Shown: one piece after another, positions 5,771 to 37,346 of the stretch | Position numbering within the stretch: the stretch's first letter is position 1 | How the letters are laid out: each line of letters opens with the position of its first letter | Assembly: GCA_943355005.1 (NCBI GenBank) | Contig: CALRDV010000003.1 | Span: 8,590 to 72,589 of the forward strand | DNA length: 64,000 bases | Origin: Patescibacteria group bacterium | Lineage (GTDB): Bacteria > Patescibacteriota > Microgenomatia > UBA1400 > MFAQ01 | Direction of reading: 5' to 3' | Program-made: the position numbers and the translations under genes | Notes under the pieces: generated by a model | Told to the model about the DNA's origin: nothing | Database searches by the model: none | The model's input: the letters and a program-made list of their open reading frames with translations, nothing else

Positions 5771-6385
5771 TTAATTTTTTACCCACATCCAGCCGGTATC
5801 GTGAGCACCTTCCGGACCGTTCAAAATAAACCAAGGGCTGATTTTGTGAGATTTAGTCCATGCATCCACTACATCCGTGACATGTACGAATTCGTGTCTT
5901 CTGACACCATAGTCGTGACCGGAAACGATGCCACCTTTGCGAACTTTCTTGCTCCACTGAGCTATGTCATTCGTTACGGCTTCAAAGCGATGATCGCCGT
6001 CGATAAAAACAAAATCGAGCGATTCGTCTTCAAAATCTTTAACGGCGTCTAAACTCCATTTGCGAATGATGGTGCTGTTAGGATATTTGCTTAATCTATT
6101 TTTGGCGTCCTCATAGATGGCGGGATAATGCTTTGGCTTTCGGAAATCTTTATAAACCGGATAGTATTCCCAGGCGTCTATGGAAAAAATTTGCATAGCA
6201 GGATTTGATTGACAAAGAACTTCGGAATATACCCCTCCGAGCACGCCAATCTCGGCTCCACTCGTAAAACCAAGTTCTTTAAATAAGTCCGGGAGATCGG
6301 TCAAACGATTGCATGTAATGTTGGCAGGAGTGCACTCTTTGGGGTCGACATGAAATTTTTCGAAAATGTGTTTGATAGTGTCCAT
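5771..6385 (-). CDS. class I SAM-dependent methyltransferase, family MT-B paralog
   Basis: 204 aa with 'AEIGVLGGVYS', 'LDFVFIDGDHRF' and 'GGIVSGHDY'. Confidence 0.6.
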   Translation of the reverse strand: MDTIKHIFEKFHVDPKECTPANITCNRLTDLPDLFKELGFTSGAEIGVLGGVYSEVLCQSNPAMQIFSIDAWEYYPVYKDFRKPKHYPAIYEDAKNRLSKYPNSTIIRKWSLDAVKDFEDESLDFVFIDGDHRFEAVTNDIAQWSKKVRKGGIVSGHDYGVRRHEFVHVTDVVDAWTKSHKISPWFILNGPEGAHDTGWMWVKN

Positions 6386-16857: not shown

Positions 16858-19254
16858 TTAGACCTTTGTATTGTCTACTTTAGTAACCTCGCCGGTATCG
16901 ATAGGCAGAGTAAAGGAGAAAACTGAACCCTGACCTTCGACAGAACTTTCAAGCTTTAGTTCTCCGTGCATACCTTCCGCCATAAGTTTAGAAATGTAAA
17001 GACCGAGTCCGGTGCCGCTAACGGTATCGCGGGTAAAAAGACTGGAACCGGCTTGTTGAAATTTGTGGAAGAGCAAACTTTGTTGTTTTAGAGGTATGCC
17101 ACGACCGGTATCGGAAACCAGGACTTTGACAAAGCCCTGCAGGACTTCAGTAGTTATTTTGATTCCGCCTTTGTCTGTAAACTTCAAAGCGTTACCTACT
17201 AAATTGATAATTATTTCTCGGACTTTGTCTGAGTCACAGATTACTTTTGGAAGATTGGGTAAAGGTGTGTACTCAAGTGAAATATTTTTGACCTCGGAAC
17301 CAGCCTTGTAGTCTGTGACTGTTTCGGTGATGAGAGTGTCTAGTTCTATGGGTTTCAAGTCGTAAATCATCTTTCCTTGCTCAAGGCGACTCACGTTTAA
17401 GAATTCATTGACGATGCGGATAAGACGGGTGCTCGATTTGTGAATGTCGTCAATCATCGTATTTAGCTCAGGGTCTTTGATGGCATCAGGATAGTAATCT
17501 TGAATCATAGAGATGTTGCCTCTAATGGCTGTGAGAGGGGTTCTTAGCTCGTGGCTGGCAATAGAGAAAAATTCGTCTTTGGAGCGTTCCAGTATTTTAG
17601 CTTCGGTAATGTCTTCAAAAAGTAAGATACTCCCGAGGTTACTTGCTTTTTCGTTTGATTGGGAAATAGGTAAGATGTTAGAGATGGGCACAAACGAAAT
17701 TTTTAAAGTCTTGGATCCATAATCAACTTCACCTTCGACTAAGACTGATTTATTTTCTTTGTGAAAAGCTTTATGAAGTTCGTGAAGGTTTGAATCTTTG
17801 GGAAATTTATTAAAGATATCCTCAGAACTGTTGATTTCGTTGGCCGTCATACCGAGAATGTCCAAGGATTTCTTGTTTAGGAATGATATGTGATGAGAAT
17901 CATCAACCATGACGAAACCGATAGGAAGACTGGAGATGGAAGCAGTTAGCTTAGTCTTCGCATTAGTGAGTTCCTCGGTTCGTTCGTCCACTTTTCTCTC
18001 GATATTTTCCTTTTCTGTTTTTAGCTGGTGTTCCAGATCTCTGGCGTCTTCAAGTAGATTTAGAACGGCGTAGTCTTTCTGTTCGAGTTTTTGATTGAGA
18101 GAGGACAGTTCGGTGATCTTTACGGATAGCTCGCTGGTTTTTTGTTTCACCTTTTCTTCCAAATCAGTATAAGATTCTTTCAGTCTTTGGCTCATGGAAT
18201 TGAAGGCTTGGGTCACTTCTCCAATTTCATCTCCGGAAACATCGAGTGGTTTGTCGCTGTAATTTCCGAGTTTAATTTTGTTCGCTTCGTTTCGCAATTC
18301 TTCTATGGGTTTCAGGATTAACTTGCTTAGGTAATATCCCAATGTTCCTACAACGATTGACAGTATCCCTATAGAGTAGGCTAGATTTTTAGCTAGTTGG
18401 TTTAGTGGGGCAAGAACTTCCGATAGGTCAATTTTGGTTACAAGACAAGATTTGAGTTCTGGTACCCATTTCCAGAACCCGAGAGCTTTGTCTCCGTGGT
18501 AGTCTATTACTTCGTCACTGATGGACGCTCCTGCTAGACACTCTTTGACTTGAGGGCGAAAGATTACTTTCTTTAGCTCTAATCCTGGCTCTTTTAGTAG
18601 TTCTGTGACTGTGACAGATGATGAGTTTATCAAAAACGTCTCTCCTGTATTACCGAAGCCTGAGCGTTCCATCATCAGTTTATTGATTTCGGAGATGTCA
18701 ATGTTGCCGACTAATAAACTTGACAATGAACCGTTGACGTTCTTAATAGGGCTGGTAATGGTGAGAATCGTGATGCCTGTGCTTGAATCGTAGCTAAAAT
18801 ACTGAGTTTCTGTTTGGGCTTGTGTTTGAGGGTTCAAAAAATATTCTTCACTGGTTTTAATTTTGCCCTCATCTTTCTCTTCGGTGGAAATAACCACTTG
18901 TCCGGCTTGGTCTAATATATAGAGGCTTGAAAATAAGGTTCTTTGGCTTAATATCTCGAGCAGCTCTGTCTTGATTAGTTCTTTGTCTACTTCCTTTTTG
19001 TTTAGTAAGTAACGTTGCACAATTTCTTTGTTTGTACTGTTGGTAGCCAAAAAATTTAGTTGGCTTTTTGCTCTGTTTAGAAAAGAGAGGATGCTTTGTT
19101 CTTTTAAAGTGGAGATGCTTTGAGTCTGAGATCTGGTTTGATTTAGAAGAGTTTCCCTTACTGTTCTAAACGCAATAAAACCACCGATGCAACTGATTAA
19201 TATAACTACGACTTCTATGGAAATAACTAATTTTTGGGTCAACCTTAGTTTCAT
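16858..19254 (-). CDS. sensor histidine kinase (extracytoplasmic sensor, HAMP, coiled coil, PAS, HisKA, HATPase_c)
   Basis: 798 aa with the H-box 'SHELRTPLTAIRGN', ATP-binding 'GTGLGLYISK', and two TM segments flanking a periplasmic domain. Confidence 0.85.
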   Translation of the reverse strand: MKLRLTQKLVISIEVVVILISCIGGFIAFRTVRETLLNQTRSQTQSISTLKEQSILSFLNRAKSQLNFLATNSTNKEIVQRYLLNKKEVDKELIKTELLEILSQRTLFSSLYILDQAGQVVISTEEKDEGKIKTSEEYFLNPQTQAQTETQYFSYDSSTGITILTITSPIKNVNGSLSSLLVGNIDISEINKLMMERSGFGNTGETFLINSSSVTVTELLKEPGLELKKVIFRPQVKECLAGASISDEVIDYHGDKALGFWKWVPELKSCLVTKIDLSEVLAPLNQLAKNLAYSIGILSIVVGTLGYYLSKLILKPIEELRNEANKIKLGNYSDKPLDVSGDEIGEVTQAFNSMSQRLKESYTDLEEKVKQKTSELSVKITELSSLNQKLEQKDYAVLNLLEDARDLEHQLKTEKENIERKVDERTEELTNAKTKLTASISSLPIGFVMVDDSHHISFLNKKSLDILGMTANEINSSEDIFNKFPKDSNLHELHKAFHKENKSVLVEGEVDYGSKTLKISFVPISNILPISQSNEKASNLGSILLFEDITEAKILERSKDEFFSIASHELRTPLTAIRGNISMIQDYYPDAIKDPELNTMIDDIHKSSTRLIRIVNEFLNVSRLEQGKMIYDLKPIELDTLITETVTDYKAGSEVKNISLEYTPLPNLPKVICDSDKVREIIINLVGNALKFTDKGGIKITTEVLQGFVKVLVSDTGRGIPLKQQSLLFHKFQQAGSSLFTRDTVSGTGLGLYISKLMAEGMHGELKLESSVEGQGSVFSFTLPIDTGEVTKVDNTKV

Positions 19255-19260
19255 GAGGGG

Positions 19261-20268
19261 TTATTTCAGGTAAATAGCTTCTAAAAATTGGAGGTCGTAG
19301 ATGTCTTTGATCTGGATTGGCTTATCTAGAATATTTTGTTCCAGCAAGATTTTTTGGGCTTGTTCCCATTTTTCTTTTTCCATCATGCCTATCGGTAGTC
19401 TTCCCGTCAAGATTAGTGGAACTGAGGATTCCAACATGTATTTTTCGTGAGAAGCACTGCTTTTGGGGGCATATTTTAGGGTAATATCAACTGCTTCATC
19501 TATGTTTTCTATGGCGTACTGCCAGCCCTTAAGAGTAGCCTTGAGAAAGCTGAGGACTTGTTCCGGTTTTGAGGCTATAGTTTCTTCTGAGGTAATAACA
19601 ATGTCGGCATACATATTTACTCCGTAATCAGAAGCCAGTATGGTGTTTACTTTCTGGCCGGCTTCCAAGACCATGTGAGGTTCATTGATGATGTAGCCGG
19701 TAGACACATCAGACGTTCCGTTTAGAAGTTCGGTGGCGTCATGACCAATTGGAATCTCCTTGATTTTACTTCGGTCTATATTTAATTTCTTCATCATGGC
19801 TAGATATAGATACTCTACGTTTTGGCCCATCTGAATGCCCACTGTTTTTCCGATAAAATCTTGTGGTTTGGTAATACCACTTTTTTTCAGTGAGTAGGCG
19901 GTAACCGGGTTTGTTTTGTATATCACGGCAATGGCGCGAACAGGAACTCCCTTGGCTCTGGCCAGAATAAGTTCGTCGGCTCCGGTAATGCCATACTGAG
20001 CTTTTCCGGAAACTACAAGATCAATAGATGATTGTCCTTTGATGACAAAGGGGAGTAAGTTCACATCCAAGGCTTCATCGCGGTAAAAGCCTTTTTCTAC
20101 GGCTACGTAGTTGCCGGCGAACTGGGCCTGGTGAAGCCATTTAAGGGCAACATTAATTTTTTCTGTCGGTCTAGCAAGGTTTTTCTTGCTTTGAATCGTG
20201 TATGGCGTAAAAATGAAAGCTGCAACGGCTATGAAAGCTAGTAAGGAGAGAAGCACTACTTTTTTCAT
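19261..20268 (-). CDS. NMT1/THI5-like (SsuA/TauA-type) periplasmic substrate-binding protein
   Basis: 335 aa with a signal peptide. 'INVALKWLHQAQFAGNYVAVEKGFY' is typical of NMT1-like binding proteins. Confidence 0.6.
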   Translation of the reverse strand: MKKVVLLSLLAFIAVAAFIFTPYTIQSKKNLARPTEKINVALKWLHQAQFAGNYVAVEKGFYRDEALDVNLLPFVIKGQSSIDLVVSGKAQYGITGADELILARAKGVPVRAIAVIYKTNPVTAYSLKKSGITKPQDFIGKTVGIQMGQNVEYLYLAMMKKLNIDRSKIKEIPIGHDATELLNGTSDVSTGYIINEPHMVLEAGQKVNTILASDYGVNMYADIVITSEETIASKPEQVLSFLKATLKGWQYAIENIDEAVDITLKYAPKSSASHEKYMLESSVPLILTGRLPIGMMEKEKWEQAQKILLEQNILDKPIQIKDIYDLQFLEAIYLK

Positions 20269-21800
20269 TTATTCTCCGAGGTTGTTTTTAATGACTCAAT
20301 CTCTTTTTTTAGTTCGGCCATCTTTAGTTCTCGACCTACCATTAGGGAGTTGAGTTTTTCTAGTTTTTCTAGATTTTCGTTTAGCACCAGGTCTGATTTC
20401 TTTTTCTCAGTGATGTCGTCTTCGATAGCGACATAGCCCTTGAGAATGCCGGTGTAGTCGATGATGGGGGAGATGGTGGCCATGGCAGTATAAAGCTCTC
20501 CACTTTGACGTTTGTTGGTCACTTCACCTTTAAATACTTGTTTCCTGGTTTTGATTGTGTCCCAAAGAGATACATAAAATTCGGGGGTCATTTGCCTGCC
20601 CCAGAGTCTGGGTGTCTTGCCTGCCATTTCAGAGAAACTGAAGCCGGTCATGATTTCGGCCGCGTGATTGGCGTAAAGTATCTTGCCGTCCGGGTCGGTG
20701 ATGATAATGTGACTGTTTGAGCTATCGACTGCCATCTGGATGGTCTGTAGGGAATCAAGCATTTCGTTTATCTTGTTTCTAAGATTGTCGACTTCATCAT
20801 TTCCTGTGGTAGATGTAAGTCTTTTGTTCGATTTTGCTGAGCCGGCGATGGACTCGACTTCTTTGGAAAGTGTAAAGACTTTACTGATGATAAATTTCCC
20901 GAGTACAAAATTGAGTAAGGCTACCAAAAGTAAACTAGCGACTCCAAAGATGGTGAGCAAAAGGACGGTGGTGTTGTGTCCTTGAATAGTGATATCTCTT
21001 TGGATGTCGGTTCTTACTATGGCCTGGGGCTGTCCATATACATCTTTGATAATGTAGTACCCGGAAATAATGTCTTTGTTAAGAGCATTTACGAATTGTT
21101 GATTTCCCTTTTTTAAATAGGCATTTTTGGCTTCTAGGTAGTCCGGGGTCATCTTTGGGTCATCCCACAAATAAGTGGAGGCTTCAAATTGGGTTAGTTC
21201 TCTTAAGGAGTCAATTACCCCTTCGTCGAAATACTTAGCAAATACAATACTGCCTTTGGGGGTACCTTTGCCATTGGTTAAATAGACATCTCTGATGACA
21301 AATAAAATAAGACCATCTTCTGTTCTGATGAAGCCTTGGTTGTTTTTGGTTTCGGTATTGATGTTTAAAAGTGCACTGCCGGTGGCAAAGTGCTTATACA
21401 GATCTTCGGGAAAATTAGTTTCATTGGTTATTTTAGATTTTGGCCCTTTTACCATAGCACTGGTGACAAGAACGCCGCTTTTGTCTACAAAAAGTACTTC
21501 ATCTACATTAGTTGGTATTAAGGCGTCCTGACTAAGATTTGCAGAGACATATTGTGGGTTTCTGTCCTCTAAAAAATTATAAGAATCATCCCAGATAGAC
21601 CAAGCTAAAAGACTGGAGTCGATTTTGGCCAAACTGTTCTTGATTACAGCGTCGACTCTTTGAATGTTATACTCGGTTCTTTGATTTTCAATTTCTTGGA
21701 ACCTATTGACTATGAATGGGTAAAAGAAGGCTGAAATCAGAGAGGTAAAGCCTATTGCCAAAATTACGGAAGTGATAGCTGTCTTTTTTTGTAGTGTCAT
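20265..21800 (-). CDS. membrane sensor protein with a periplasmic domain, a PAS domain and a C-terminal coiled coil (no output domain)
   Basis: 511 aa with an N-terminal TM, a second TM near aa 290, and the PAS-like 'IIITDPDGKILYANHAAEIMTGFSFSEMAGK'. Confidence 0.55.
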   Translation of the reverse strand: MTLQKKTAITSVILAIGFTSLISAFFYPFIVNRFQEIENQRTEYNIQRVDAVIKNSLAKIDSSLLAWSIWDDSYNFLEDRNPQYVSANLSQDALIPTNVDEVLFVDKSGVLVTSAMVKGPKSKITNETNFPEDLYKHFATGSALLNINTETKNNQGFIRTEDGLILFVIRDVYLTNGKGTPKGSIVFAKYFDEGVIDSLRELTQFEASTYLWDDPKMTPDYLEAKNAYLKKGNQQFVNALNKDIISGYYIIKDVYGQPQAIVRTDIQRDITIQGHNTTVLLLTIFGVASLLLVALLNFVLGKFIISKVFTLSKEVESIAGSAKSNKRLTSTTGNDEVDNLRNKINEMLDSLQTIQMAVDSSNSHIIITDPDGKILYANHAAEIMTGFSFSEMAGKTPRLWGRQMTPEFYVSLWDTIKTRKQVFKGEVTNKRQSGELYTAMATISPIIDYTGILKGYVAIEDDITEKKKSDLVLNENLEKLEKLNSLMVGRELKMAELKKEIESLKTTSENK

Positions 21801-21801
21801 A

Positions 21802-23367
21802 TTATTTTAATTGAGAACTAATATAGCGGGCAATAAGGTAGGAGGGGAGAAAGGAAAATATAATTAGAATGACGGTGATCAAGAAGGTAATCTCAATGGA
21901 TTTGCCTGCTGTGGCAAAGATGCTGGCAGATGGTCTACCGGCAAAGATCATACCCACGGTTTCATTGTTGGAGTCTTTAAGTGGGTGATATGCGGCGAAG
22001 TAGGAAGTGTTAAGTAGGTTTATTTGACCTGAATAATTTTTTCCTTGTAGTAGGACGAGGTTGGAAATATTCTTGTTGGTATTTTTGATACCAATTGGAC
22101 GGCTTAAATTTTTGGTGTCGTTAATGGTAGTCGCAGAAAGTGTTTCTCCGCCATAAAGACCGATTTCTAGACCTGTGGCTTTTTGGATACCATCAAGGAA
22201 GTTGTTGTCAAGGGTTTGTGAGGAGAAGATAACGCCGATGACCTTTCCGTCCAGTTTGATGGGAGTGGCTGACCTAACGGCGACGATAGGTGAGATGGCA
22301 GAATCTGTCGTGCTAATAGAAGAAATACTTTCGCCAATCATGGCTCGCTTAAAGAGTGAGTCTCCGGAAAGAGAATCTCCCACACGTTCGCGGTCTTCGC
22401 CTCTGGCCAAGACTTGGCCATACTCATTTGCGATAATAAGACTGCTTAATTTCTGAGAGATAAGAATACTTTCTGCAGCCGGAGCCAGAATTTTTTTATC
22501 ACTACTGCCGATGGCCGTGATGATGTTGGAATTTTGGGCCAAAATCGAAGCCGAGGCCAGAGTTTCGGATTTTTTGGCATCCAGAGCATAGGAAAGCACA
22601 GAAACGTCAGTAGAGAGTCTGGCTAGAGTTTCTTCTGAAATATTTTTCAGCAGTAGGAAGGTGAAAGAAACAGTAGTCAAAAGAAATATCGCTAGGGTGG
22701 TGGTGGTGAAAATTATAAATAGCTGAGTGTTTATGCGCTTAAGTAAGTAGAAGAAGGCCCACTTGATAAGTATCGCCGAGCCGAGAAGAAGAACGAGGTG
22801 GGCTGCAATCCAGATGGGTCCAAGAGGGGCTACCAGATGAAAAATATCGATATTTGTACTTTTACTAAAAAGATCGGGAATACAAAGGAGTTCAAAAAAT
22901 GCAGTTAAGAAAAAGGCGTACGAGACATTCTTGGTATGATCTTCGAGACCAATAGTAGCCCGACGGAGATAAAGCCAGGCTGCGGTGACAGCCAAAATGG
23001 GAGCCGTAAGGTGGGGAATGGCTATGTTAAAAATGGCAACGGCTGCTAGCTTTGGCTTGTCGATAAGAGGGTCGGAGATAAGTCCGGCAAGCAGAAATAA
23101 ATAGCCAAGATTGCGTAAGATAAGCGAAATCTTCTCACTTAGATCGCCTCCGAGATTAACAGAGGTAAGTCCGGGGGATTCGATGAGTACAGCATGAGCC
23201 AAGAAAGAAAGGGAGATTAAGAGGAAGCCGGTAATCTTGAGACCCTCTTTGAAGGTTCTTCTTTCCTGCCAGGCGTCTAGATAAAGCCAAAAAATAGAAA
23301 AAAATGCCAAGGCCGCAAAAATACTTGTGGCAAAGTGAAAGTTCTCGAGTAAGAATTGAGAAAACAT
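21802..23367 (-). CDS. integral membrane protein (N-terminal multi-TM bundle plus extracytoplasmic domain plus C-terminal TM); putative sensor module
   Basis: 521 aa. Hydrophobicity pattern only; no catalytic motifs were seen. Confidence 0.4.
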   Translation of the reverse strand: MFSQFLLENFHFATSIFAALAFFSIFWLYLDAWQERRTFKEGLKITGFLLISLSFLAHAVLIESPGLTSVNLGGDLSEKISLILRNLGYLFLLAGLISDPLIDKPKLAAVAIFNIAIPHLTAPILAVTAAWLYLRRATIGLEDHTKNVSYAFFLTAFFELLCIPDLFSKSTNIDIFHLVAPLGPIWIAAHLVLLLGSAILIKWAFFYLLKRINTQLFIIFTTTTLAIFLLTTVSFTFLLLKNISEETLARLSTDVSVLSYALDAKKSETLASASILAQNSNIITAIGSSDKKILAPAAESILISQKLSSLIIANEYGQVLARGEDRERVGDSLSGDSLFKRAMIGESISSISTTDSAISPIVAVRSATPIKLDGKVIGVIFSSQTLDNNFLDGIQKATGLEIGLYGGETLSATTINDTKNLSRPIGIKNTNKNISNLVLLQGKNYSGQINLLNTSYFAAYHPLKDSNNETVGMIFAGRPSASIFATAGKSIEITFLITVILIIFSFLPSYLIARYISSQLK

Positions 23368-25572: not shown

Positions 25573-25648
25573 GCCGGGATAGCTCAGTTGGTAGAGCGCA
25601 TGTTTTGTAAACATGATGTCGTGGGTTCGATTCCCGCTCCCGGCTCCA
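25573..25648 (+). tRNA. tRNA-Thr (anticodon TGT), CCA encoded
   Basis: Cloverleaf drawn by hand. Acceptor GCCGGGA/TCCCGGC, D arm GCTC-AGTTGGTA-GAGC, anticodon stem CATGT/ACATG with loop TTTGTAA, T arm GTGGG-TTCGATT-CCCGC. Confidence 0.85.
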
Positions 25649-25649
25649 A

Positions 25650-26078
25650 ATGGACTGTAAACAATGCGGCTGTTCAATAAAAAAGTACGCTTTTAAATAT
25701 TGCTCCAATCAGTGTCAGAGAAATTTCGAATATGGTGTGTTTGTAACTGATTGGAAATCAGGGGTTGTTACTGGCTCTGTCGGTTTAACAGCTAAAAATA
25801 TCTCTGGATATCTAAAAAGATATTTAGATGAAAAGTATGGGTTTAAATGCAGTTTGTGTGGATGGGATAAAGTGAACTCAGTAACAAATAGGGTACCTCT
25901 TGAAATAGATCATATTAATGGTGATTCTGAAGATAACAGCGAGATTAATCTTAGGGTTGTTTGTCCGAATTGTCACTCGCTTAGTTCTAATTATAAAAAC
26001 TTGAATCGTGGAAAAGGGAGAGTTTGGAGAAAGGATAAGTACATAAAAAATCCCCGTACGGGTGCACGGGGAGAGTGA
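25650..26078 (+). CDS. HNH endonuclease
   Basis: 142 aa with the N-terminal Zn ribbon 'CKQCGCSIKKY...CSNQC' and the HNH core 'EIDHINGDSEDNSEINLRVVCPNCHS'. Its start codon is 2 nt after the tRNA CCA. Confidence 0.7.
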   Translation: MDCKQCGCSIKKYAFKYCSNQCQRNFEYGVFVTDWKSGVVTGSVGLTAKNISGYLKRYLDEKYGFKCSLCGWDKVNSVTNRVPLEIDHINGDSEDNSEINLRVVCPNCHSLSSNYKNLNRGKGRVWRKDKYIKNPRTGARGE

Positions 26079-26534
26079 TTAACGAAAATCGCTTACAAGT
26101 TTGGCTTTGAAACTAATAATGTCGCCTTCCATATCCGGGATCCCAATACAAATGTCCATAAGGTCGATGCTATTTCTGTCTACCTCATAAAGACCTTTAC
26201 GGTATCTGATCTTGACGGTTTTGTATGGTTCCGGTTTCTTGGTACAGGAAGCGCTTCCTAAAATGTTTAATTGCTGCCTGTGTTCATAAAGAGCCCCTTC
26301 TTCTACATAGCCGATTTGATTTTCCCTCATGTCGGATACTTTGGTTTCTTTGTTTTGATTTGAAACCGGTTTCTTTTCCGACTTTTCCTTTTTGCCTGCT
26401 TTGTGCTTTTCGAAGGGTTTAACCGGATTCACCTGTCGGTGTTCTGTACAGAATATTTGGTTTGGGCTAATAGAAATCCCGCATTCTAAGCATTTGTATT
26501 TTTCGTAGACAAATGGAGGAATAGGGTTGTCCAT
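26079..26534 (-). CDS. Zn-ribbon protein, paralog family member C (with 28557..28949 and 28952..29365)
   Basis: 151 aa with 'YKCLECGISISPNQIFCTEH' and a shared C-terminal core 'YKTVKIRYRKGLYEVDRNSIDLMDI'. Confidence 0.5.
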   Translation of the reverse strand: MDNPIPPFVYEKYKCLECGISISPNQIFCTEHRQVNPVKPFEKHKAGKKEKSEKKPVSNQNKETKVSDMRENQIGYVEEGALYEHRQQLNILGSASCTKKPEPYKTVKIRYRKGLYEVDRNSIDLMDICIGIPDMEGDIISFKAKLVSDFR

Positions 26535-26576
26535 GGGGACCTCCTTATATTTTAAATTTGCGATACTCTGGTGAGA

Positions 26577-28508
26577 TTATACCGCCAAAATTTGGTCTTC
26601 AATCATTTGCGAGTATATTTTTTCGAAGATGTCTCGAATTATGTCCATGTTTAGCGTTTTGTTTCTGGCGATAAACGCCTGAAGGTCAGGCATTAGAAGG
26701 TCTACTCCTTCTTTATTGAAGTGATGATTACTGGTAGGGGATTCTTTCACAATTCCTCCAAGATAGGCCATTTTGCTTCCGGATAGACCCCAGCGTTTGG
26801 CTAGCTGTCTCATGATGTTTGGCTTTAGAGTCTTGTCTTTGCCTCCAATATATATAGCTACATTTCTATAAAAGTTACCCCAATCTTCAGGGTCTACATT
26901 TGAGATATCCCTGAAAGGGGGTGTCATTCTTTCCAAGTTTTTGGAGTCTTGATTCATAGCTGTGCCATTGTTCAGGATTTCGTCCTCTGTTCCTGCAATT
27001 AGTTCTTCGAAATACTCGGCATCATGACCAATATGTTTCTTGAGTTTTGCAATCAAAATGGGTGTCAGTTTAACTGTTTTTATGATCATCCTTCTTAGCT
27101 TATTTAGTCCCATCTCTTGAAGAATGTTTGGCGCTTTGATGAGAACGTTGTCGATACCTTGATTAATAGTGTTGGACTTTACAGCAGTTTTTGGAGAAGC
27201 ATCCTTGTTTTTTCGAAGATAAAACAGCCAAGGATATTCTTTTTTTAGCTCTTCTACATCGTTTTTGTCTCCGACCACGACGGGTGTTAGTGCCACATTC
27301 ATACAAAAAGGGGAGTTGTCTCGGGTGCTGTCGGAGAAGAAGCGACTGGTTTCCTCTCTTTCCGCTACAGTTTTTACCAACTCTTCGTAGAACCTTGAGA
27401 TCTCTGGGTTGATTATTTGAGAAGTAAAAGCGTACCTCATTAGTTTGATGCCCTTTTTCCAATTCTTGGCTGTTTCTTCGGCTTCTACTCGCCAGTTTTT
27501 TCTGTATAGGACCGCTTCAGGTCGATCAAGTAAATTCTCTGCGACTGCGATTTCCAGGGATCGAAGTCCACCCATGGAGTGCCCCAGAGAGATTGCTAGA
27601 GATTTTTGCCACCACGTACCGTTTTCAAGTGATTGGACTTGTTGGAGGTATTTGATGAAGTTTAGAAGCTTAGCTTCGTTGACAGTTGAAAGATAGAAAT
27701 CTTTTTTGAGTGCGAAAAATAGATTTGGTAGCTCGTCCTTCTGGAATTGCACCCAGTTTTCAGCGTGTCTTAGTAGTGTGTTGGTTTTGATGTTTTCTAC
27801 TTGAAGTCCAATTCTGTCGACGGCCTCTAACCACTGGGAAGCAATCTGATCTTGAGTAAACTGGTTTGCGTTTTCATTGTCCATGCTATTGTTGCTACCC
27901 ATGACATCGAGGTTTATGACGAGTGTTTTGGAGAGATCATCTTTTGTGAGAGTCACTCTGTTACCTTGCTTATCTAGGGCTTCAGCCCCTTCAATTTCAC
28001 CATTTAGAAGTTTCATGGCATAGCGCTCGAAGTTCTTACCTTTACCGCCCCAGCCGTGACCCATGATTACAAAGTACTCGGCGTTAGGGATAATTTCATC
28101 TCTGAAAAATTCTTGTCTTTCTTTTTGGTTTTTTTTCTTAGATATACTTTCCAGATACTGCGGATGGGCATAGATAGTATTTGGAGTATCTTTTATCCCT
28201 GGAACATCCGATTCAGTAAGACCTATTCCGGCAACGACCTTGTAGATTGATCCGTCAGCTTCTTTGGCTGTTCTGATAAATACTTCATTCGCGAGCACAT
28301 CGTTTGGCAAGTATTTTAGTTCGGGAGAAAGTTCTCTATTTTGACCCTTTAATCTTATTTGTTCTACAGTTTCGCGGTGAAGAGTGACTCTCGTTTCAGC
28401 ATCAAGAGGGTTATTTGGGTCTAGCTCATCCATCGGATGTGAATACTCCGGTGCTTTGAGAGTTTCCTTTTTGTATTCTTCTTGGTATATAGACAATCCT
28501 TCCGGCAT
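26577..28508 (-). CDS. large hypothetical protein with an alpha/beta-hydrolase (lipase/esterase-like) nucleophile-elbow motif
   Basis: 643 aa with 'ISLGHSMGGLRS' (GxSxG). No signal peptide is evident. Confidence 0.45.
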   Translation of the reverse strand: MPEGLSIYQEEYKKETLKAPEYSHPMDELDPNNPLDAETRVTLHRETVEQIRLKGQNRELSPELKYLPNDVLANEVFIRTAKEADGSIYKVVAGIGLTESDVPGIKDTPNTIYAHPQYLESISKKKNQKERQEFFRDEIIPNAEYFVIMGHGWGGKGKNFERYAMKLLNGEIEGAEALDKQGNRVTLTKDDLSKTLVINLDVMGSNNSMDNENANQFTQDQIASQWLEAVDRIGLQVENIKTNTLLRHAENWVQFQKDELPNLFFALKKDFYLSTVNEAKLLNFIKYLQQVQSLENGTWWQKSLAISLGHSMGGLRSLEIAVAENLLDRPEAVLYRKNWRVEAEETAKNWKKGIKLMRYAFTSQIINPEISRFYEELVKTVAEREETSRFFSDSTRDNSPFCMNVALTPVVVGDKNDVEELKKEYPWLFYLRKNKDASPKTAVKSNTINQGIDNVLIKAPNILQEMGLNKLRRMIIKTVKLTPILIAKLKKHIGHDAEYFEELIAGTEDEILNNGTAMNQDSKNLERMTPPFRDISNVDPEDWGNFYRNVAIYIGGKDKTLKPNIMRQLAKRWGLSGSKMAYLGGIVKESPTSNHHFNKEGVDLLMPDLQAFIARNKTLNMDIIRDIFEKIYSQMIEDQILAV

Positions 28509-28556
28509 AAGAATATTTTACCCCATAGACCGCAAAAATGCCCCCTAAGAAGGGGG

Positions 28557-28949
28557 CTAGGTATCGGAGAGGTGGACAAGGAAGCAGGGGGTATTTTCAT
28601 CATAATCGGGCCAACCGAAGTAAATATCGTCTCTGTCGATACTGTGGCTATCGAGTTTGATAGCACCTTTATATTTTCGAATCTTAGCCGTGTAGTATCT
28701 GTCTTTGTGAGGGCTAAGAATAGCTTTCGATAGAATCCAAAGTAAGCCATCTGCCTCAAAGATACTACCAGGGGAGGCATAAAAAGTTTTATCTTCAGAC
28801 ATACTGGAAACTGTGGTTGTATCGTCTGGAAAGTAAGGAGCACATTCTTTGCAGAAAATGCCTTTGGTGATGGGGGAGTCACAGTTAAGACAAATCCCTC
28901 TTTTATTCATGAACGAAACACCAATTAGGGGGTTAAATTTTTGATACAT
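28557..28949 (-). CDS. Zn-ribbon protein, paralog family member B
   Basis: 130 aa with 'CLNCDSPITKGIFCKEC' and the core 'YYTAKIRKYKGAIKLDSHSIDRDDIYF'. The overlapping track ORF 28421..28882 in another frame is judged spurious. Confidence 0.5.
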   Translation of the reverse strand: MYQKFNPLIGVSFMNKRGICLNCDSPITKGIFCKECAPYFPDDTTTVSSMSEDKTFYASPGSIFEADGLLWILSKAILSPHKDRYYTAKIRKYKGAIKLDSHSIDRDDIYFGWPDYDENTPCFLVHLSDT

Positions 28950-28951
28950 AT

Positions 28952-29365
28952 TTAACTCTTCATCCGAGTTAGAACCGCCATAAAATAATTTGTTTCAGTT
29001 TCATCCGTAAGCGTGTCTTGAAATACAAGGTCGGAACTGAGAGTGTTGTAGTCTACTTCAATAATGGAGGTAAGACTTTTTCGTATCCGTACACAGTATT
29101 TTTCATTTGTATATGGAGTTACTTGAGCGGTTCTCAAAATCCATATATTACCGATCTCTTCCATAAAGGCATCAGGGGTTGTGTAGCCTTCTTCCAAAAA
29201 GTCCATCTCTAAAATTGTTTTAATTTTGCTTATTGTCTCGTCGTCTGCTGGACTGTCCAGGAAACATGACGAACACAGAATGCCGGAGGTGATGGGGTGG
29301 TCGCAGTTAAGGCACTGCCCTGAACTAAAAACTGGATTGGACATAATTTCTCCTTGGAATTTCAA
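28952..29365 (-). CDS. Zn-ribbon protein, paralog family member A
   Basis: 137 aa with 'CLNCDHPITSGILCSSC' and the core 'YCVRIRKSLTSIIEVDYNTLSSDLVF'. Confidence 0.5.
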   Translation of the reverse strand: MKFQGEIMSNPVFSSGQCLNCDHPITSGILCSSCFLDSPADDETISKIKTILEMDFLEEGYTTPDAFMEEIGNIWILRTAQVTPYTNEKYCVRIRKSLTSIIEVDYNTLSSDLVFQDTLTDETETNYFMAVLTRMKS

Positions 29366-29455
29366 AGTAGTTTCTTCGTATTATAGCTTGCTTTACTAAA
29401 TATTTTTTTGGGTTAGGTAAATGAGGGTAAATAATGTAAAATACTATGTGTGTTT

Positions 29456-29528
29456 GCCGTCGTAGCTCAGCTGGCAGAGCGCGTTCTTGGTAAGAACGAG
29501 GTGTTGGGTTCGACCCCCAACGACGGCT
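29456..29528 (+). tRNA. tRNA-Thr (anticodon GGT), CCA not encoded
   Basis: Acceptor GCCGTCG/CGACGGC, anticodon stem CGTTC/GAACG with loop TTGGTAA, T arm TTGGG-TTCGACC-CCCAA. Confidence 0.8.
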
Positions 29529-29545
29529 CCCTGACTCAGCCTTAT

Positions 29546-29631
29546 GCCGAGGTGGTAGAGTGGTCAAATACTCGGGTCTGTAAAACCCGCGGCGCAAGCC
29601 TACACAGGTTCGAACCCTGTCCTCGGCACCA
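29546..29631 (+). tRNA. tRNA-Tyr (anticodon GTA), class II with long variable arm, CCA encoded
   Basis: Acceptor GCCGAGG/CCTCGGC, anticodon stem CGGGT/ACCCG with loop CTGTAAA, long variable arm, T arm ACAGG-TTCGAAC-CCTGT, 3' ACCA. Confidence 0.8.
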
Positions 29632-29636
29632 TAAAA

Positions 29637-29668
29637 GAATTTCCCCTTTACGGAGAAATTTTTTTATG
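29637..29668 (+). terminator. intrinsic terminator after the tRNA pair
   Basis: Hairpin tttcccc/ggagaaa followed by a T7 run. Confidence 0.5.
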
Positions 29669-29838
29669 GACCTCGTACAGGGTTCTTCTCACCCCCTCAT
29701 GTAACTATCTGCTGATAGTTCATTCGGACCTGGCTCGGTGTCGTCACGCCTCCGCCTCTCTTCATATTTGCTCTTGATCCTCAAAATCTCCTCAAGGGAT
29801 ATTTTTAGGGAGCAACTATTCAGAGCCTCGGCACTAAA

Positions 29839-29876
29839 TAAATATCCTCCCCTCGCGGGAGGATATTTTATTTTGT
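29839..29876 (+). terminator. strong hairpin plus T-tract (terminator-like)
   Basis: Perfect 12-bp stem aaatatcctccc/gggaggatattt with loop ctcgc, followed by 'tattttgt'. Confidence 0.4.
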
Positions 29877-35783: not shown

Positions 35784-37346
35784 GTGAAAATCGAAGAATT
35801 AGTACGAAGAGACGCGGAAAAAGTCACTCCTGAGAATTTGGAGGAGTATCGCCGCGCCTGGGCAAAGGTAATTGGCCGGATGCCGAAGAACTCAGAAATT
35901 TGGCCCTTTATTGACGATGATGAGATAAAAGAGCTTTACAAGACCCGCAGTGTACGGACTGAGTCCGGGGTAGCTCCGTTTGCGGTCATGATGAAACCTC
36001 ATTATTGTCCCGGCAACTGTGTTTACTGTCCACTGGAAGAAGGAATGCCGAAATCTTATTTATCGGATGAGCCGGCGGCTCAGAGAGCCAAGAAATTGAA
36101 GTTTGATCCGTATTTGCAAGTAGAGATGAGAATTAAACAGATGGAAGAGACTGGGCACATCACTGACAAAATAGATTTGATAGTGATTGGGGGAACTTTT
36201 TCTGCTTATCCGGATGATTACAAGCTGGAATTTTTTAAGGGTATGTTTGATGGGGTAAATGGATTTGTTTCCGATACTTTGGAAGAAGCCCAAAAATATA
36301 ATGAGACGGGGAAAAGAAGAATCGTGGGAATTTCGGTAGAAACAAGACCTGACTGGGTGACAGAACAGGAGATAATTTTATGGCGAAAAATGGGTGTGAC
36401 CAAGGTACAGCTCGGAGTCCAAGCATTCGATGAAGAAATTTTGAAGAAAATTAATAGGGGACATAGTCTGGATGAAGTGGCCGAAGCGACCAGGATGTGT
36501 AGAAATGCGGGGGTGAAGATTTGCTATCACTTCATGCCAAACTTGCCGGGGAGCACACCGGAAAAAGATATTGAGATGGCGAAAATAATGTTTAATGATC
36601 CTAGATTTGAGCCTGATTATCTCAAAGTTTATCCGGCGATGGTAATTCCGACGACTGAGCTGCATAAGATGTGGGAAAGAGGCGAGTATCAGAGCTATGC
36701 CGATGAGGATTTGAAAAGAGTATTGAAAGAAGTAAAAAGATTGACCCCGCGATGGTGCCGGATAGATAGATTGGTCCGTGATATCAGTAAACAGTGGGTG
36801 AGTTCGGGAACCCTGAGAACCAACTTAAGACAAATTCTACAGGCCGAATTAAAGAAAGAGGGTAAAAAATGTCTGTGTATCCGGTGCAGAGAAGTCCGAG
36901 CGGGTGTCTATGATGCTGAAGTAAAACTACTGATAGATGAGAGAGAAACTTTGGGGGGACAAGAGCTTTTCTTGTCTTTTGAAAGTGAAGACAATTTATT
37001 TTCGATGTTGCGACTGCGACTTCCGGAGAAAGATGAAAAGATGCTATTTAAGGAGCTTGAGGGGGCAGCGATAGTGCGGGAAGTACATACGTATGGTCAA
37101 GTAAAAGGAATTACTGCTATGGATTCCGGGTCGGAGCCCGGAATGACAGACCTTCAAGGAGACTCCTTGAAGGGGGAAGAAAGTCAACATAGGGGACTAG
37201 GGAAGAGACTTTTGGTAAAGGCTGAAGAGATCGCCAAAGACAGAGGCTATAAAAAAATGGCGGTAATATCGGCAATAGGCACGAGAGAGTACTACAAGAA
37301 GCTGGGATACGAGCTGGAGGGGGAGTATGTGGTGAAGATGTTGTAG
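35784..37346 (+). CDS. Elp3-family radical SAM plus GNAT protein (putative tRNA uridine-34 modification enzyme)
   Basis: 520 aa with the radical-SAM cysteine triad 'CPGNCVYCP' and a C-terminal GNAT 'RGLGKRLLVKAEEIAKDRGYKKMAVISAIGTREYYKKLGY'. Confidence 0.7.
   Translation: MKIEELVRRDAEKVTPENLEEYRRAWAKVIGRMPKNSEIWPFIDDDEIKELYKTRSVRTESGVAPFAVMMKPHYCPGNCVYCPLEEGMPKSYLSDEPAAQRAKKLKFDPYLQVEMRIKQMEETGHITDKIDLIVIGGTFSAYPDDYKLEFFKGMFDGVNGFVSDTLEEAQKYNETGKRRIVGISVETRPDWVTEQEIILWRKMGVTKVQLGVQAFDEEILKKINRGHSLDEVAEATRMCRNAGVKICYHFMPNLPGSTPEKDIEMAKIMFNDPRFEPDYLKVYPAMVIPTTELHKMWERGEYQSYADEDLKRVLKEVKRLTPRWCRIDRLVRDISKQWVSSGTLRTNLRQILQAELKKEGKKCLCIRCREVRAGVYDAEVKLLIDERETLGGQELFLSFESEDNLFSMLRLRLPEKDEKMLFKELEGAAIVREVHTYGQVKGITAMDSGSEPGMTDLQGDSLKGEESQHRGLGKRLLVKAEEIAKDRGYKKMAVISAIGTREYYKKLGYELEGEYVVKML

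Follow-up and report, generated by a model that had tools for sequence, protein, structure and literature searches.

A rare predicted alpha/beta-hydrolase, its zinc-ribbon protein neighbours and an HNH endonuclease gene between tRNA genes of an uncultured Patescibacteria bacterium

Capped alpha/beta-hydrolases of known structure include deacetylcephalosporin C acetyltransferase (DAC acetyltransferase; Protein Data Bank, PDB, entries 2vav/2vat), the homoserine O-acetyltransferase MetX (6iog), the peroxisomal Lpx1 (2y6v), PME-1 (3c5v/7soy), the monoglyceride lipase Rv0183 (6eic) and PhaZ (8ynv), and a GHSMGG or AHSMGG nucleophile elbow is borne by PGAP1-like and lipase class 2 esterases. Lipases are also found as effectors in polymorphic toxin loci, where the Tle-Tli genes of type VI secretion systems (T6SS) form effector/immunity arrays. 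Free-standing homing endonucleases of the T5 F-Tfl / T4 SegB type, in turn, are an established phenomenon in phage tRNA clusters. Here we compare these systems with an interval at positions 25573-29631 of a 64,000-nt stretch of contig CALRDV010000003.1 (positions 8,590 to 72,589 of the forward strand; assembly GCA_943355005.1) from a Patescibacteria group bacterium; the whole stretch is called the window hereafter. Between a tRNA-Thr(TGT) gene and a tRNA-Thr(GGT)/tRNA-Tyr(GTA) pair, the interval carries an HNH endonuclease gene, a gene for a 643-aa hydrolase-like protein and three genes for small zinc-ribbon (ZnR) proteins, named ZnR-A, ZnR-B and ZnR-C. An earlier note on this DNA had placed three tRNA genes and five open reading frames (ORFs) here, an inventory borne out by ARAGORN, Rfam and the ORF list.

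We lean, if only slightly beyond an even chance, towards an account in which the interval consists of two independent modules whose only common feature is their position beside tRNA genes. One is the HNH gene; the other, the hydrolase/ZnR locus, would be chromosomal, vertically inherited and rapidly diverging. The ZnR and hydrolase genes co-occur exclusively, lie on a common strand with short spacing and are under purifying selection. To judge from these features of sequence and arrangement, the ZnR proteins are most likely hydrolase-specific partners. The comparison covers four genomes, namely the window and three relatives designated L001 (GCA_964348455.1), L004 and L017 (a JGI contig), with synteny in L004 judged only as far as its contig extends.

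The hydrolase and the zinc-ribbon family

The hydrolase gene (26577-28508, minus strand) was characterised by alignment and by modelling with AlphaFold2 (AF2). A word-indexed search of 5.8 billion proteins returned the hydrolase itself and one relative, 59% identical to it, and an exhaustive HMMER search of 1.84 billion representative proteins gave eight true relatives of 530-667 aa. A further match of the latter search, P0013, is a Sushi-repeat protein and was rejected as a false positive. The hydrolase was not found in 50,697 phage and 72,556 plasmid records, and a viral scan with a divergent alignment (A4) recovered no relative. One gene call among the relatives, the 729-aa P0016 of L010, is over-extended: its first 62 codons (6001-6186) cover a tRNA-Ala(CGC) gene, and translation really begins with the Met at nt 6187, which is also where the 667-aa P0015 begins.

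The alignment of the family supports the earlier view that the 643-aa protein, with its GHSMGG motif at residues 309-314, is a serine hydrolase. Invariant positions comprise G152 within HGWGG (151-155, the oxyanion motif), G309-H310-S311-M312 of the elbow and D558; S311, D558 and H595 are all invariant across the nine full-length members. A first AF2 model, made from two sequences, was discarded (pLDDT 32.5), and a second, built with nine, reached a pLDDT of 81.7 and a pTM of 0.87. The modelled elbow is formed by strand 304-310 followed by helix 312-325, while HGWGG comes after strand 145-150, D558 after strand 550-555 and H595 after strand 587-590. Helical insertions at about 211-303, 330-384 and 418-548 account for some 390 residues in total, and there is an N-terminal beta extension. 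When the model was compared with the PDB by Foldseek, every top match was a capped alpha/beta-hydrolase; likewise, six sub-threshold PDB profile matches are without exception to alpha/beta-hydrolases, with the alignments falling on the oxyanion, elbow or His motifs. The core fold is common to the hydrolase and the six enzymes named at the outset, and 2vav, 6iog, 2y6v, 3c5v, 6eic and 8ynv also present the same order of oxyanion motif, Ser elbow, Asp and His, with a helical cap before the Asp strand. The window hydrolase differs from these capped enzymes in being about twice as long, in its three helical insertions and in its N-terminal beta extension.

Family libraries do not place the protein. 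In Pfam, whose Abhydrolase_1/6, PGAP1 and DUF915 models were considered, and in NCBIfam it stays below every curated cutoff, with nothing in NCBIfam and, as the best Pfam match, PGAP1 (PF07819) at 11.9 bits; its relative P0014 reaches 16.7 bits for Abhydrolase_1, against a cutoff of 25.8. The likeness to PGAP1 consists in the GHSMGG elbow, on which weak matches are centred in two members of the hydrolase family; the scores are 11.9 and 13.2 bits where the gathering cutoff is 24.3, and with similarity confined to some 15-60 residues around the elbow the likeness does not amount to membership. No signal peptide, hydrophobic or transmembrane segment, or secretion or delivery domain was found in the hydrolase. 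The proportion of nonsynonymous differences (pN) in its gene is well below that of synonymous differences (pS). From the alignment and the model we conclude that the 643-aa protein is a cytoplasmic Ser311-Asp558-His595 alpha/beta-hydrolase, predicted to be active and representing a very rare new family. On the model it is probably an acyl-ester hydrolase or an acyl-transferase; a lipid or acyl ester as its substrate is a guess from the GHSMGG elbow.

The three ZnR genes, recognised as ORFs and by their paralogy, are on the same strand as the hydrolase gene. ZnR-C (26079-26534, minus strand; 151 aa, pI 8.7) lies downstream of it, and ZnR-B (28557-28949, minus strand; 130 aa, pI 5.9) and ZnR-A (28952-29344, minus strand; 130 aa, pI 4.3) upstream. 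For ZnR-A the earlier note had given 137 aa, counted from a TTG at 29365. While its five ORFs stand, this length does not: the TTG is without comparable support, and the ATG at 29344 is preceded by AGGAG and is the Met at which both the database protein and the L004 orthologue begin, so that ZnR-A most likely starts there and has 130 aa. The paralogy of the three proteins, also proposed before, is confirmed by pairwise comparison (A-B, E 7e-18; B-C, 7e-14; A-C, 1e-3), as are the shared ribbon, with its Cx2C...Cx2(C/H) ligands, and the shared C-terminal core, in which I-R and D residues are invariant.

Within the ribbon, C15, C18 and C29 do not vary, and every aligned member has C or H at position 32; in L017 the ribbon reads CAVC...CTSC. 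These four ligand positions assign the proteins to the zinc-ribbon structural class and predict metal binding, and the Pfam family Zn_Ribbon_1 gives a sub-threshold match (E 0.072). The conserved C-terminal domain shared by the paralogues comprises about 75 residues. In ZnR-C it is separated from a Cx2C-x10-Cx2H ribbon by a Lys-rich linker, which is responsible for the basic character of this protein (pI 8.7-9.2). The copies upstream of the hydrolase gene are, by contrast, acidic (pI 4.2-6.3), and strongly so in the case of ZnR-A and that of L017 (pI 4.2-4.4, net charge -10 to -17).

The family was sought with a profile against 5.8 billion proteins, with an HMM in all six frames of the window and of every locus retrieved, and in a metagenome scan. 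It has seven members in four genomes: A, B and C in the window, A and B in L004, C in L001 (53% identical to that of the window) and an upstream copy of 167 aa in L017. All seven lie at most one gene from a hydrolase of the close clade, on the same strand, and ZnR-C is found in every genome where the downstream side of the hydrolase is readable. Around seven distant hydrolase relatives, a six-frame HMM search (--max, E <= 10) detected no ZnR-like ORF. A 156-aa gene after the L016 hydrolase was considered as a diverged ZnR and rejected, having no cysteines and no HMM match. The absence of ZnR beside the seven distant relatives indicates that the pairing with the hydrolase is an innovation of a single clade and not a property of the enzyme family.

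Searches of Pfam, NCBIfam, PHROGs, PADLOC and PDB sequences gave no significant match for the ZnR proteins. The inability of the earlier note to place them, or the 643-aa protein, is thus shared by all these searches. YjdM/PhnA and the antitoxin MqsA resemble them in size (110-130 aa) and in architecture, a small second domain coming after an N-terminal zinc ribbon with four ligands, but both were rejected as relatives, with profile probabilities of 2% and 0.6%, respectively, and no Pfam PhnA or helix-turn-helix match. No relevant account of a pairing of hydrolase and zinc-ribbon protein was found in the literature. In the databases searched, then, ZnR is an orphan family of small cytoplasmic proteins whose sole known context is this locus. 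All ZnR genes have pN well below pS (0.07 versus 0.54 in ZnR-B); together with the like result for the hydrolase, this indicates that they are real, constrained genes.

Transcription units, divergence and possible roles of the locus

The earlier note had read the hydrolase and ZnR genes as one four-gene operon. The gaps between them measure 2 nt (ZnR-A/ZnR-B), 48 nt (ZnR-B/hydrolase) and 42 nt (hydrolase/ZnR-C). A hairpin scan found in the ZnR-B/hydrolase spacer a GC-rich hairpin with a T-run (28540-28557, minus strand), which has equivalents at the same place in L004, L001 and L017. In each of the four genomes it is followed by a conserved motif, the 15-mer TATGGGGTAAAATAT, whose distance from the hydrolase ATG is 4-5 nt (window 28513-28527, minus strand; L004 919-933; L001 9982-9996; L017 831-845). 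Farther upstream, a promoter-like TATAAT box (29380-29385, minus strand) lies within AAGCTATAATA, ahead of the genes that occupy the upstream slot, in the window, L004 and L017; in L001 it takes the form GTTATAATA. The hairpin with its T-run and TATGGGGTAAAATAT between ZnR-B and the hydrolase gene argue against a single operon and for what are probably two transcription units, a variable slot unit (ZnR-A/ZnR-B), probably terminated by the spacer hairpin, and a constant hydrolase/ZnR-C unit.

As for TATGGGGTAAAATAT itself, it is a candidate for a -10-like box (TAAAAT), for an unusual ribosome-binding site or for a regulatory start-stop element. Given that TAAAAT ends 6 nt ahead of the hydrolase start codon, the mRNA may be leaderless or have a very short leader. 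The 15-mer also holds a two-codon mini-ORF, ATG-GGG-TAA, in each of the four genomes. ZnR-C has its own AAGGAGG 5 nt upstream of the ATG, and in the gap that separates it from the hydrolase gene (42-69 nt across genomes) the hairpin scan detected no terminator-like hairpin. After ZnR-C comes an intrinsic-terminator-like hairpin followed by TTTTTT (26051-26072, minus strand; 9 pairs, 6 of them GC), overlapping the last codons of the convergent HNH ORF. This canonical terminator-like structure would close the hydrolase/ZnR-C unit.

The slot holds ZnR-A and ZnR-B in the window and L004, one ZnR gene in L017 and an unrelated ORF of 84 aa in L001. With two, one or no ZnR genes in the slot, and none at all beside the seven distant relatives, the three small proteins are not constant companions of the hydrolase, which answers a question that the earlier note had raised. 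The L001 ORF (9649-9903) is of membrane type, with a hydrophobic segment (maximum 19-residue hydropathy 1.76), and has the same type of promoter box before it and the same hairpin after it.

Sequence divergence is unevenly distributed along the locus. In the comparison of the window with L001, identity is 62-92% for flanking orthologues and lowest for the hydrolase (59%) and ZnR-C (53%); the hydrolase differences are concentrated at codons 246-305 and 426-485, inside the helical insertions. Between the window and L004, ZnR-A and ZnR-B show 74% and 88% amino acid identity (72-83% at the nucleotide level; pS 0.40-0.68), versus 47% in the hydrolase, where pS is 0.64-0.97 from the first codon. Judged by the N-terminal part of the hydrolase, L004 falls outside the other three genomes. 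The discordance between ZnR-A/ZnR-B and the hydrolase points to exchange of the upstream cassette or to very uneven rates.

A comparable pattern occurs among the distant relatives. In L008 (6001-8695) and L016 (1902-5080), NDK is 89% identical in amino acids (76% in nucleotides), a tRNA-Arg segment is 98% identical and tRNA-Pro(CGG) is in the same place; the hydrolases at this syntenic site are 22% identical, with no nucleotide similarity, and the large genes upstream are unrelated. The contrast implies either extreme local divergence or allele replacement. Apart from NDK and tRNA-Pro in these two loci, no conserved neighbours of the distant hydrolase relatives were found. Counting the window clade, members of the family lie within about 130 nt of a tRNA gene in five of seven independent lineages. 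Among the distant hydrolases, tRNA-Pro(CGG) is located 27-129 nt downstream in three lineages (L008 8095-8169, L014 7930-8001, L016 3912-3984), and tRNA-Ala(CGC) 57 nt upstream in L010 (6056-6129).

As partners of the hydrolase, the ZnR proteins would be its regulatory, inhibitory or adaptor subunits. Binding would go through the shared C-terminal domain, and the ribbon and the variable linker would give each paralogue a different charge and role. ZnR-C, expressed from the hydrolase unit and diverging at a similar rate, would be the constant subunit, and the upstream copies, present in two, one or no copies and belonging to a separate unit, would be exchangeable modulators.

The fast divergence of the hydrolase and ZnR-C within a syntenic block, with the most variable hydrolase segments placed in helical insertions, also invites the idea that the enzyme is the toxic effector of a conflict system, directed at phages, at other bacteria or at a host, with the ZnR proteins in the role of immunity proteins, inhibitors or sensors. 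A paralogue array with an exchangeable cassette slot would fit such a system, and so would the L008/L016 contrast and the position of the locus near tRNA genes with a nuclease gene alongside. In its possible working, though not in the sense of membership, the locus is like the T6SS Tle-Tli arrays, which also combine a GxSxG hydrolase with paralogous small-protein genes in variable number and diverge quickly. Unlike them, it lacks a secretion system and its small proteins carry no signal peptides, nor is there any similarity in sequence. Moreover, no PADLOC-DB v2 model matches the hydrolase or the ZnR proteins at E <= 1 (the HNH protein matches only the generic ZorE/HEase), and the hydrolase has none of the export or delivery features for which it was searched. 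Around the seven distant relatives there are housekeeping genes but no small partner, an arrangement hard to square with a self-toxic enzyme, and ZnR-A and ZnR-B do not co-diverge with the hydrolase. An effector role is therefore unlikely in our judgement, although worth bearing in mind. A related and somewhat more speculative proposal, to which we give a small chance, is that of an undescribed conflict module of uncultured small-genome bacteria, serving defence or host interaction, in which a rapidly diversifying intracellular hydrolase occupies tRNA-adjacent hot spots and is controlled, in one clade, by an exchangeable cassette of ZnR inhibitors or sensors. A bolder variant still would have the enzyme act on esters linked to tRNA and so account for the proximity of tRNA genes.

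The ZnR proteins might instead be nucleic-acid-binding regulators of the locus and not physical partners of the enzyme. The zinc ribbon and the basic, Lys-rich linker of ZnR-C are compatible with this; the conserved non-coding motifs before the hydrolase gene (TATGGGGTAAAATAT) and before the slot (AAGCTATAATA) could be operators, and the conservation of ZnR-B is independent of hydrolase divergence. Yet strong acidity such as that of ZnR-A and the L017 copy is unusual among proteins that bind DNA or RNA, the family libraries yielded neither a helix-turn-helix nor any other known nucleic-acid-binding domain, and three paralogous regulators for one enzyme gene would be uneconomical. Such a role has, in our view, a rather low probability, and we retain the ZnR proteins as likely partners of the hydrolase.

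The HNH endonuclease and tRNA-Thr(TGT)

The HNH gene (25650-26078, plus strand) was identified as an ORF and by domain matches, and encodes a free-standing endonuclease of 142 aa, in which a Cys-rich finger at the N-terminus accompanies an HNH core of the form EIDHINGD...N...CPNCH. Its identity, as named in the earlier note, is upheld by two PHROG HNH families (E 1.7e-15 and 2.7e-14) and by the PADLOC ZorE/HEase nuclease models (E ~1e-8 to 1e-9); the Pfam HNH score, at 21.3 bits, is just below the cutoff of 21.4. The gene abuts tRNA-Thr(TGT) (25573-25648, plus strand; ARAGORN and Rfam) as had been described, with the encoded CCA at 25646-25648, a single A and then the ATG at 25650.

The earlier note had also suggested that this might be a junction of mobile-element type, and phage genomes lend substance to the suggestion. 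A tblastn search of GenBank phages found homologues of the HNH protein in 87 records, and in nine of 11 independent lineages sampled the homologue touches a tRNA-Thr gene or lies at most 77 nt from it. tRNA-Thr(TGT) is present at all nine of these junctions. In Raoultella phage Ro1 the HNH ATG comes immediately after the CCA. The HNH gene is downstream of tRNA-Thr with a gap of 77 nt in Xanthomonas phage XbC2 and Klebsiella phage AmPh_EK80 and of 53 nt in E. coli phage vB_Ec-M-J, and in Streptomyces phage Forrest it follows a tRNA-Thr trio (tgt/cgt/ggt). It abuts the 5' side of tRNA-Thr in the T5-like phage HdH2, Synechococcus phage DSL-LC03 and Enterococcus phage iF6, and ends 3 nt from tRNA-Thr(TGT) in Ochrobactrum phage vB_OspM_OC, where it is annotated on the opposite strand. 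An internal control from IMG/VR agrees with an association with tRNA genes in general, since a tRNA lies within 400 nt in seven of the 12 best HNH relatives versus none of 48 weaker matches to the HNH core only. The window HNH thus belongs to a phage clade that lives in or beside tRNA genes, most often tRNA-Thr(TGT).

The homologue in iF6 (L018; MT909815.1, 41100-41501) is the nearest among GenBank phages, at 41% identity over 94% coverage. No gene is annotated there; the sequence lies within an array of 12 tRNAs, sharing about 12 nt with tRNA-Thr(TGT).

In L001 the junction is kept as GGCTCCA-A-ATG, and the HNH sequence retains 75% amino acid identity to that of the window, a value typical for the neighbourhood. 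However, the L001 gene is frameshifted by one additional A in a poly-A run, present in three assemblies, whereas the hydrolase and ZnR-C of L001 are intact. This indicates that the HNH gene is old at the site and decaying in one lineage independently of the hydrolase locus. It has most likely been resident at this chromosomal tRNA since before the lineages of the window and L001 split. The possibility that tRNA-Thr(TGT) itself was imported from a phage together with the HNH gene finds no support: window and L001 have an identical tRNA, of ordinary, canonical bacterial appearance and unlike the tRNA-Thr genes of the phages.

Placed beside the tRNA-cluster homing endonucleases of the T5 F-Tfl / T4 SegB type, the window HNH gene resembles them in being embedded next to a tRNA gene, an arrangement recurrent across its relatives, and the T5-like HdH2 and AmPh_EK80 bear direct homologues of it at tRNA-Thr(TGT), with 34-38% identity. 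It differs in being chromosomal, beside a normal-looking host tRNA and outside any phage tRNA array, and in having a frameshifted copy in L001. Most likely it is a homing-type selfish nuclease gene. Its expression would probably depend on read-through from tRNA-Thr(TGT), in which case 3' processing of the tRNA would leave an almost leaderless HNH mRNA.

Synteny and the history of the interval

The genes around the interval are ordinary chromosomal ones, coding for two-component sensors, TatC, a methyltransferase, an amino-acid kinase, an Elp3-like radical-SAM protein, MreB and topoisomerase I. In L001 the hydrolase, ZnR-C and HNH genes lie between the same two tRNA bounds, and the flanks on both sides are orthologous. 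tRNA-Thr(ggt) and tRNA-Tyr precede the ZnR gene and the hydrolase gene in L017, and L004 has ZnR-A, ZnR-B and the hydrolase gene in the order of the window. The interval therefore occupies a syntenic site in every relative recovered, and only the ZnR-A/ZnR-B slot varies.

These comparisons bear on the proposal of the earlier note that the whole interval is a small mobile genomic islet integrated at tRNA genes, with the HNH endonuclease as part of its machinery. The idea has a basis in the tRNA genes at both bounds, tRNA-Thr(TGT) on one side and tRNA-Thr(GGT) (29456-29530, plus strand) with tRNA-Tyr(GTA) (29546-29631, plus strand) on the other, the latter two likewise located by ARAGORN and Rfam. 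The phage-associated clade of the HNH, the variable upstream slot with a divergence discordant with that of the hydrolase, the recurrence of tRNA genes beside the hydrolase family in five of seven independent lineages and an inversion of the tRNA-Thr(GGT)/tRNA-Tyr block in the window could be cited in the same sense. But the GC content of the interval (0.41-0.42) equals that of the flanks (about 0.42), no direct repeat of a tRNA 3' end occurs in it, and no integrase or recombinase ORF or domain was identified in or beside it in the ORF list and domain scans. The only long direct repeat is the ribbon-coding sequence common to ZnR-A and ZnR-B. The hydrolase is absent from the phage and plasmid records searched, and in L001 the HNH gene is frameshifted while the remaining locus persists. 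Above all, synteny largely refutes the islet: the tRNA-bounded arrangement and orthologous flanks are found in L001 and the same upstream boundary in L017. The earlier note had itself set down syntenic conservation, beforehand, as evidence that would tell against its proposal; it extends to L001, to L017 and, up to the end of the contig, to L004. We consider an islet very unlikely. Mere chance neighbourhood of lineage-specific orphan genes and the hydrolase gene is less credible still: orphan small genes are common in uncultured small-genome bacteria, the distant hydrolases have no ZnR and the upstream copies form their own transcription unit, but all seven family members in the four genomes lie within one gene of the hydrolase clade on the same strand, ZnR-C follows the hydrolase stop by 42-69 nt with its own ribosome-binding site and no terminator-like hairpin between, and ZnR-B is under strong purifying selection.

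Several differences in the surroundings of the interval can be recorded as well. The tRNA-Thr(GGT)/tRNA-Tyr/terminator block of the window (29456-29868) is inverted relative to L001 (9151-9505) and L017 (1-205); its neighbours keep their orientation, which implies a small in-situ inversion of about 400 bp. Between tRNA-Thr(TGT) and TatC the window has three large sensors (Cache/CHASE4/PAS/HAMP/HisKA) and an NMT1/THI5-like protein (16858-23367), while the corresponding position in L001 holds a 309-aa protein, an NTPase, a SpaA-like protein and a sortase. The region beyond tRNA-Thr(TGT) is thus the part that differs between the two genomes. The Elp3-like protein of the window (35784-37346; 520 aa, with Radical_SAM, Radical_SAM_C and a C-terminal GNAT domain) is 89% identical in L001. 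L001/L005 (CAYGCQ010000005.1) contain a sortase, a SpaA-like pilin, several TatA genes, an Elp3-like radical-SAM protein and numerous orphan genes, with a GC content of about 42%, and the depositor label 'uncultured Pseudomonadales bacterium' is not an obvious fit with this gene content.

The account of two independent modules, which we favour, has to be held against several points that weigh on the other side. The Foldseek matches of the hydrolase are weak (best E 4e-3; TM 0.45-0.61 when normalised to the target and below 0.3 when normalised to the hydrolase query; 7-11% identity), which makes the substrate class a guess. The seven distant hydrolase relatives stand without a ZnR neighbour, so that the partner is not intrinsic to the enzyme family. 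The identity of 88% in ZnR-B next to 47% in the adjoining hydrolase, between the window and L004, is unlike what simple co-evolving partners would display. The tRNAs that adjoin the IMG/VR matches of the HNH are mostly not Thr. Finally, the homing nature of the HNH is deduced from gene context only, and the physical or functional link between ZnR proteins and hydrolase is likewise only inferred.

Nothing in the locus overturns current understanding. Nevertheless, a phage-type, tRNA-Thr-linked endonuclease lineage is here resident also at a chromosomal tRNA gene, and the start codon of the HNH gene at the CCA offers a simple system for studying tRNA-coupled expression of selfish genes. Extreme local divergence at a fixed syntenic site, an exchangeable upstream cassette and adjacency to tRNA genes are typical of genes involved in conflict or host dependence, which makes the hydrolase/ZnR locus a reasonable candidate for experiments. 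If the ZnR proteins are dedicated partners of the hydrolase, the locus would represent a new family of alpha/beta-hydrolases together with a new small-protein fold or function, in poorly understood uncultured bacteria most of whose genes have no assigned function.

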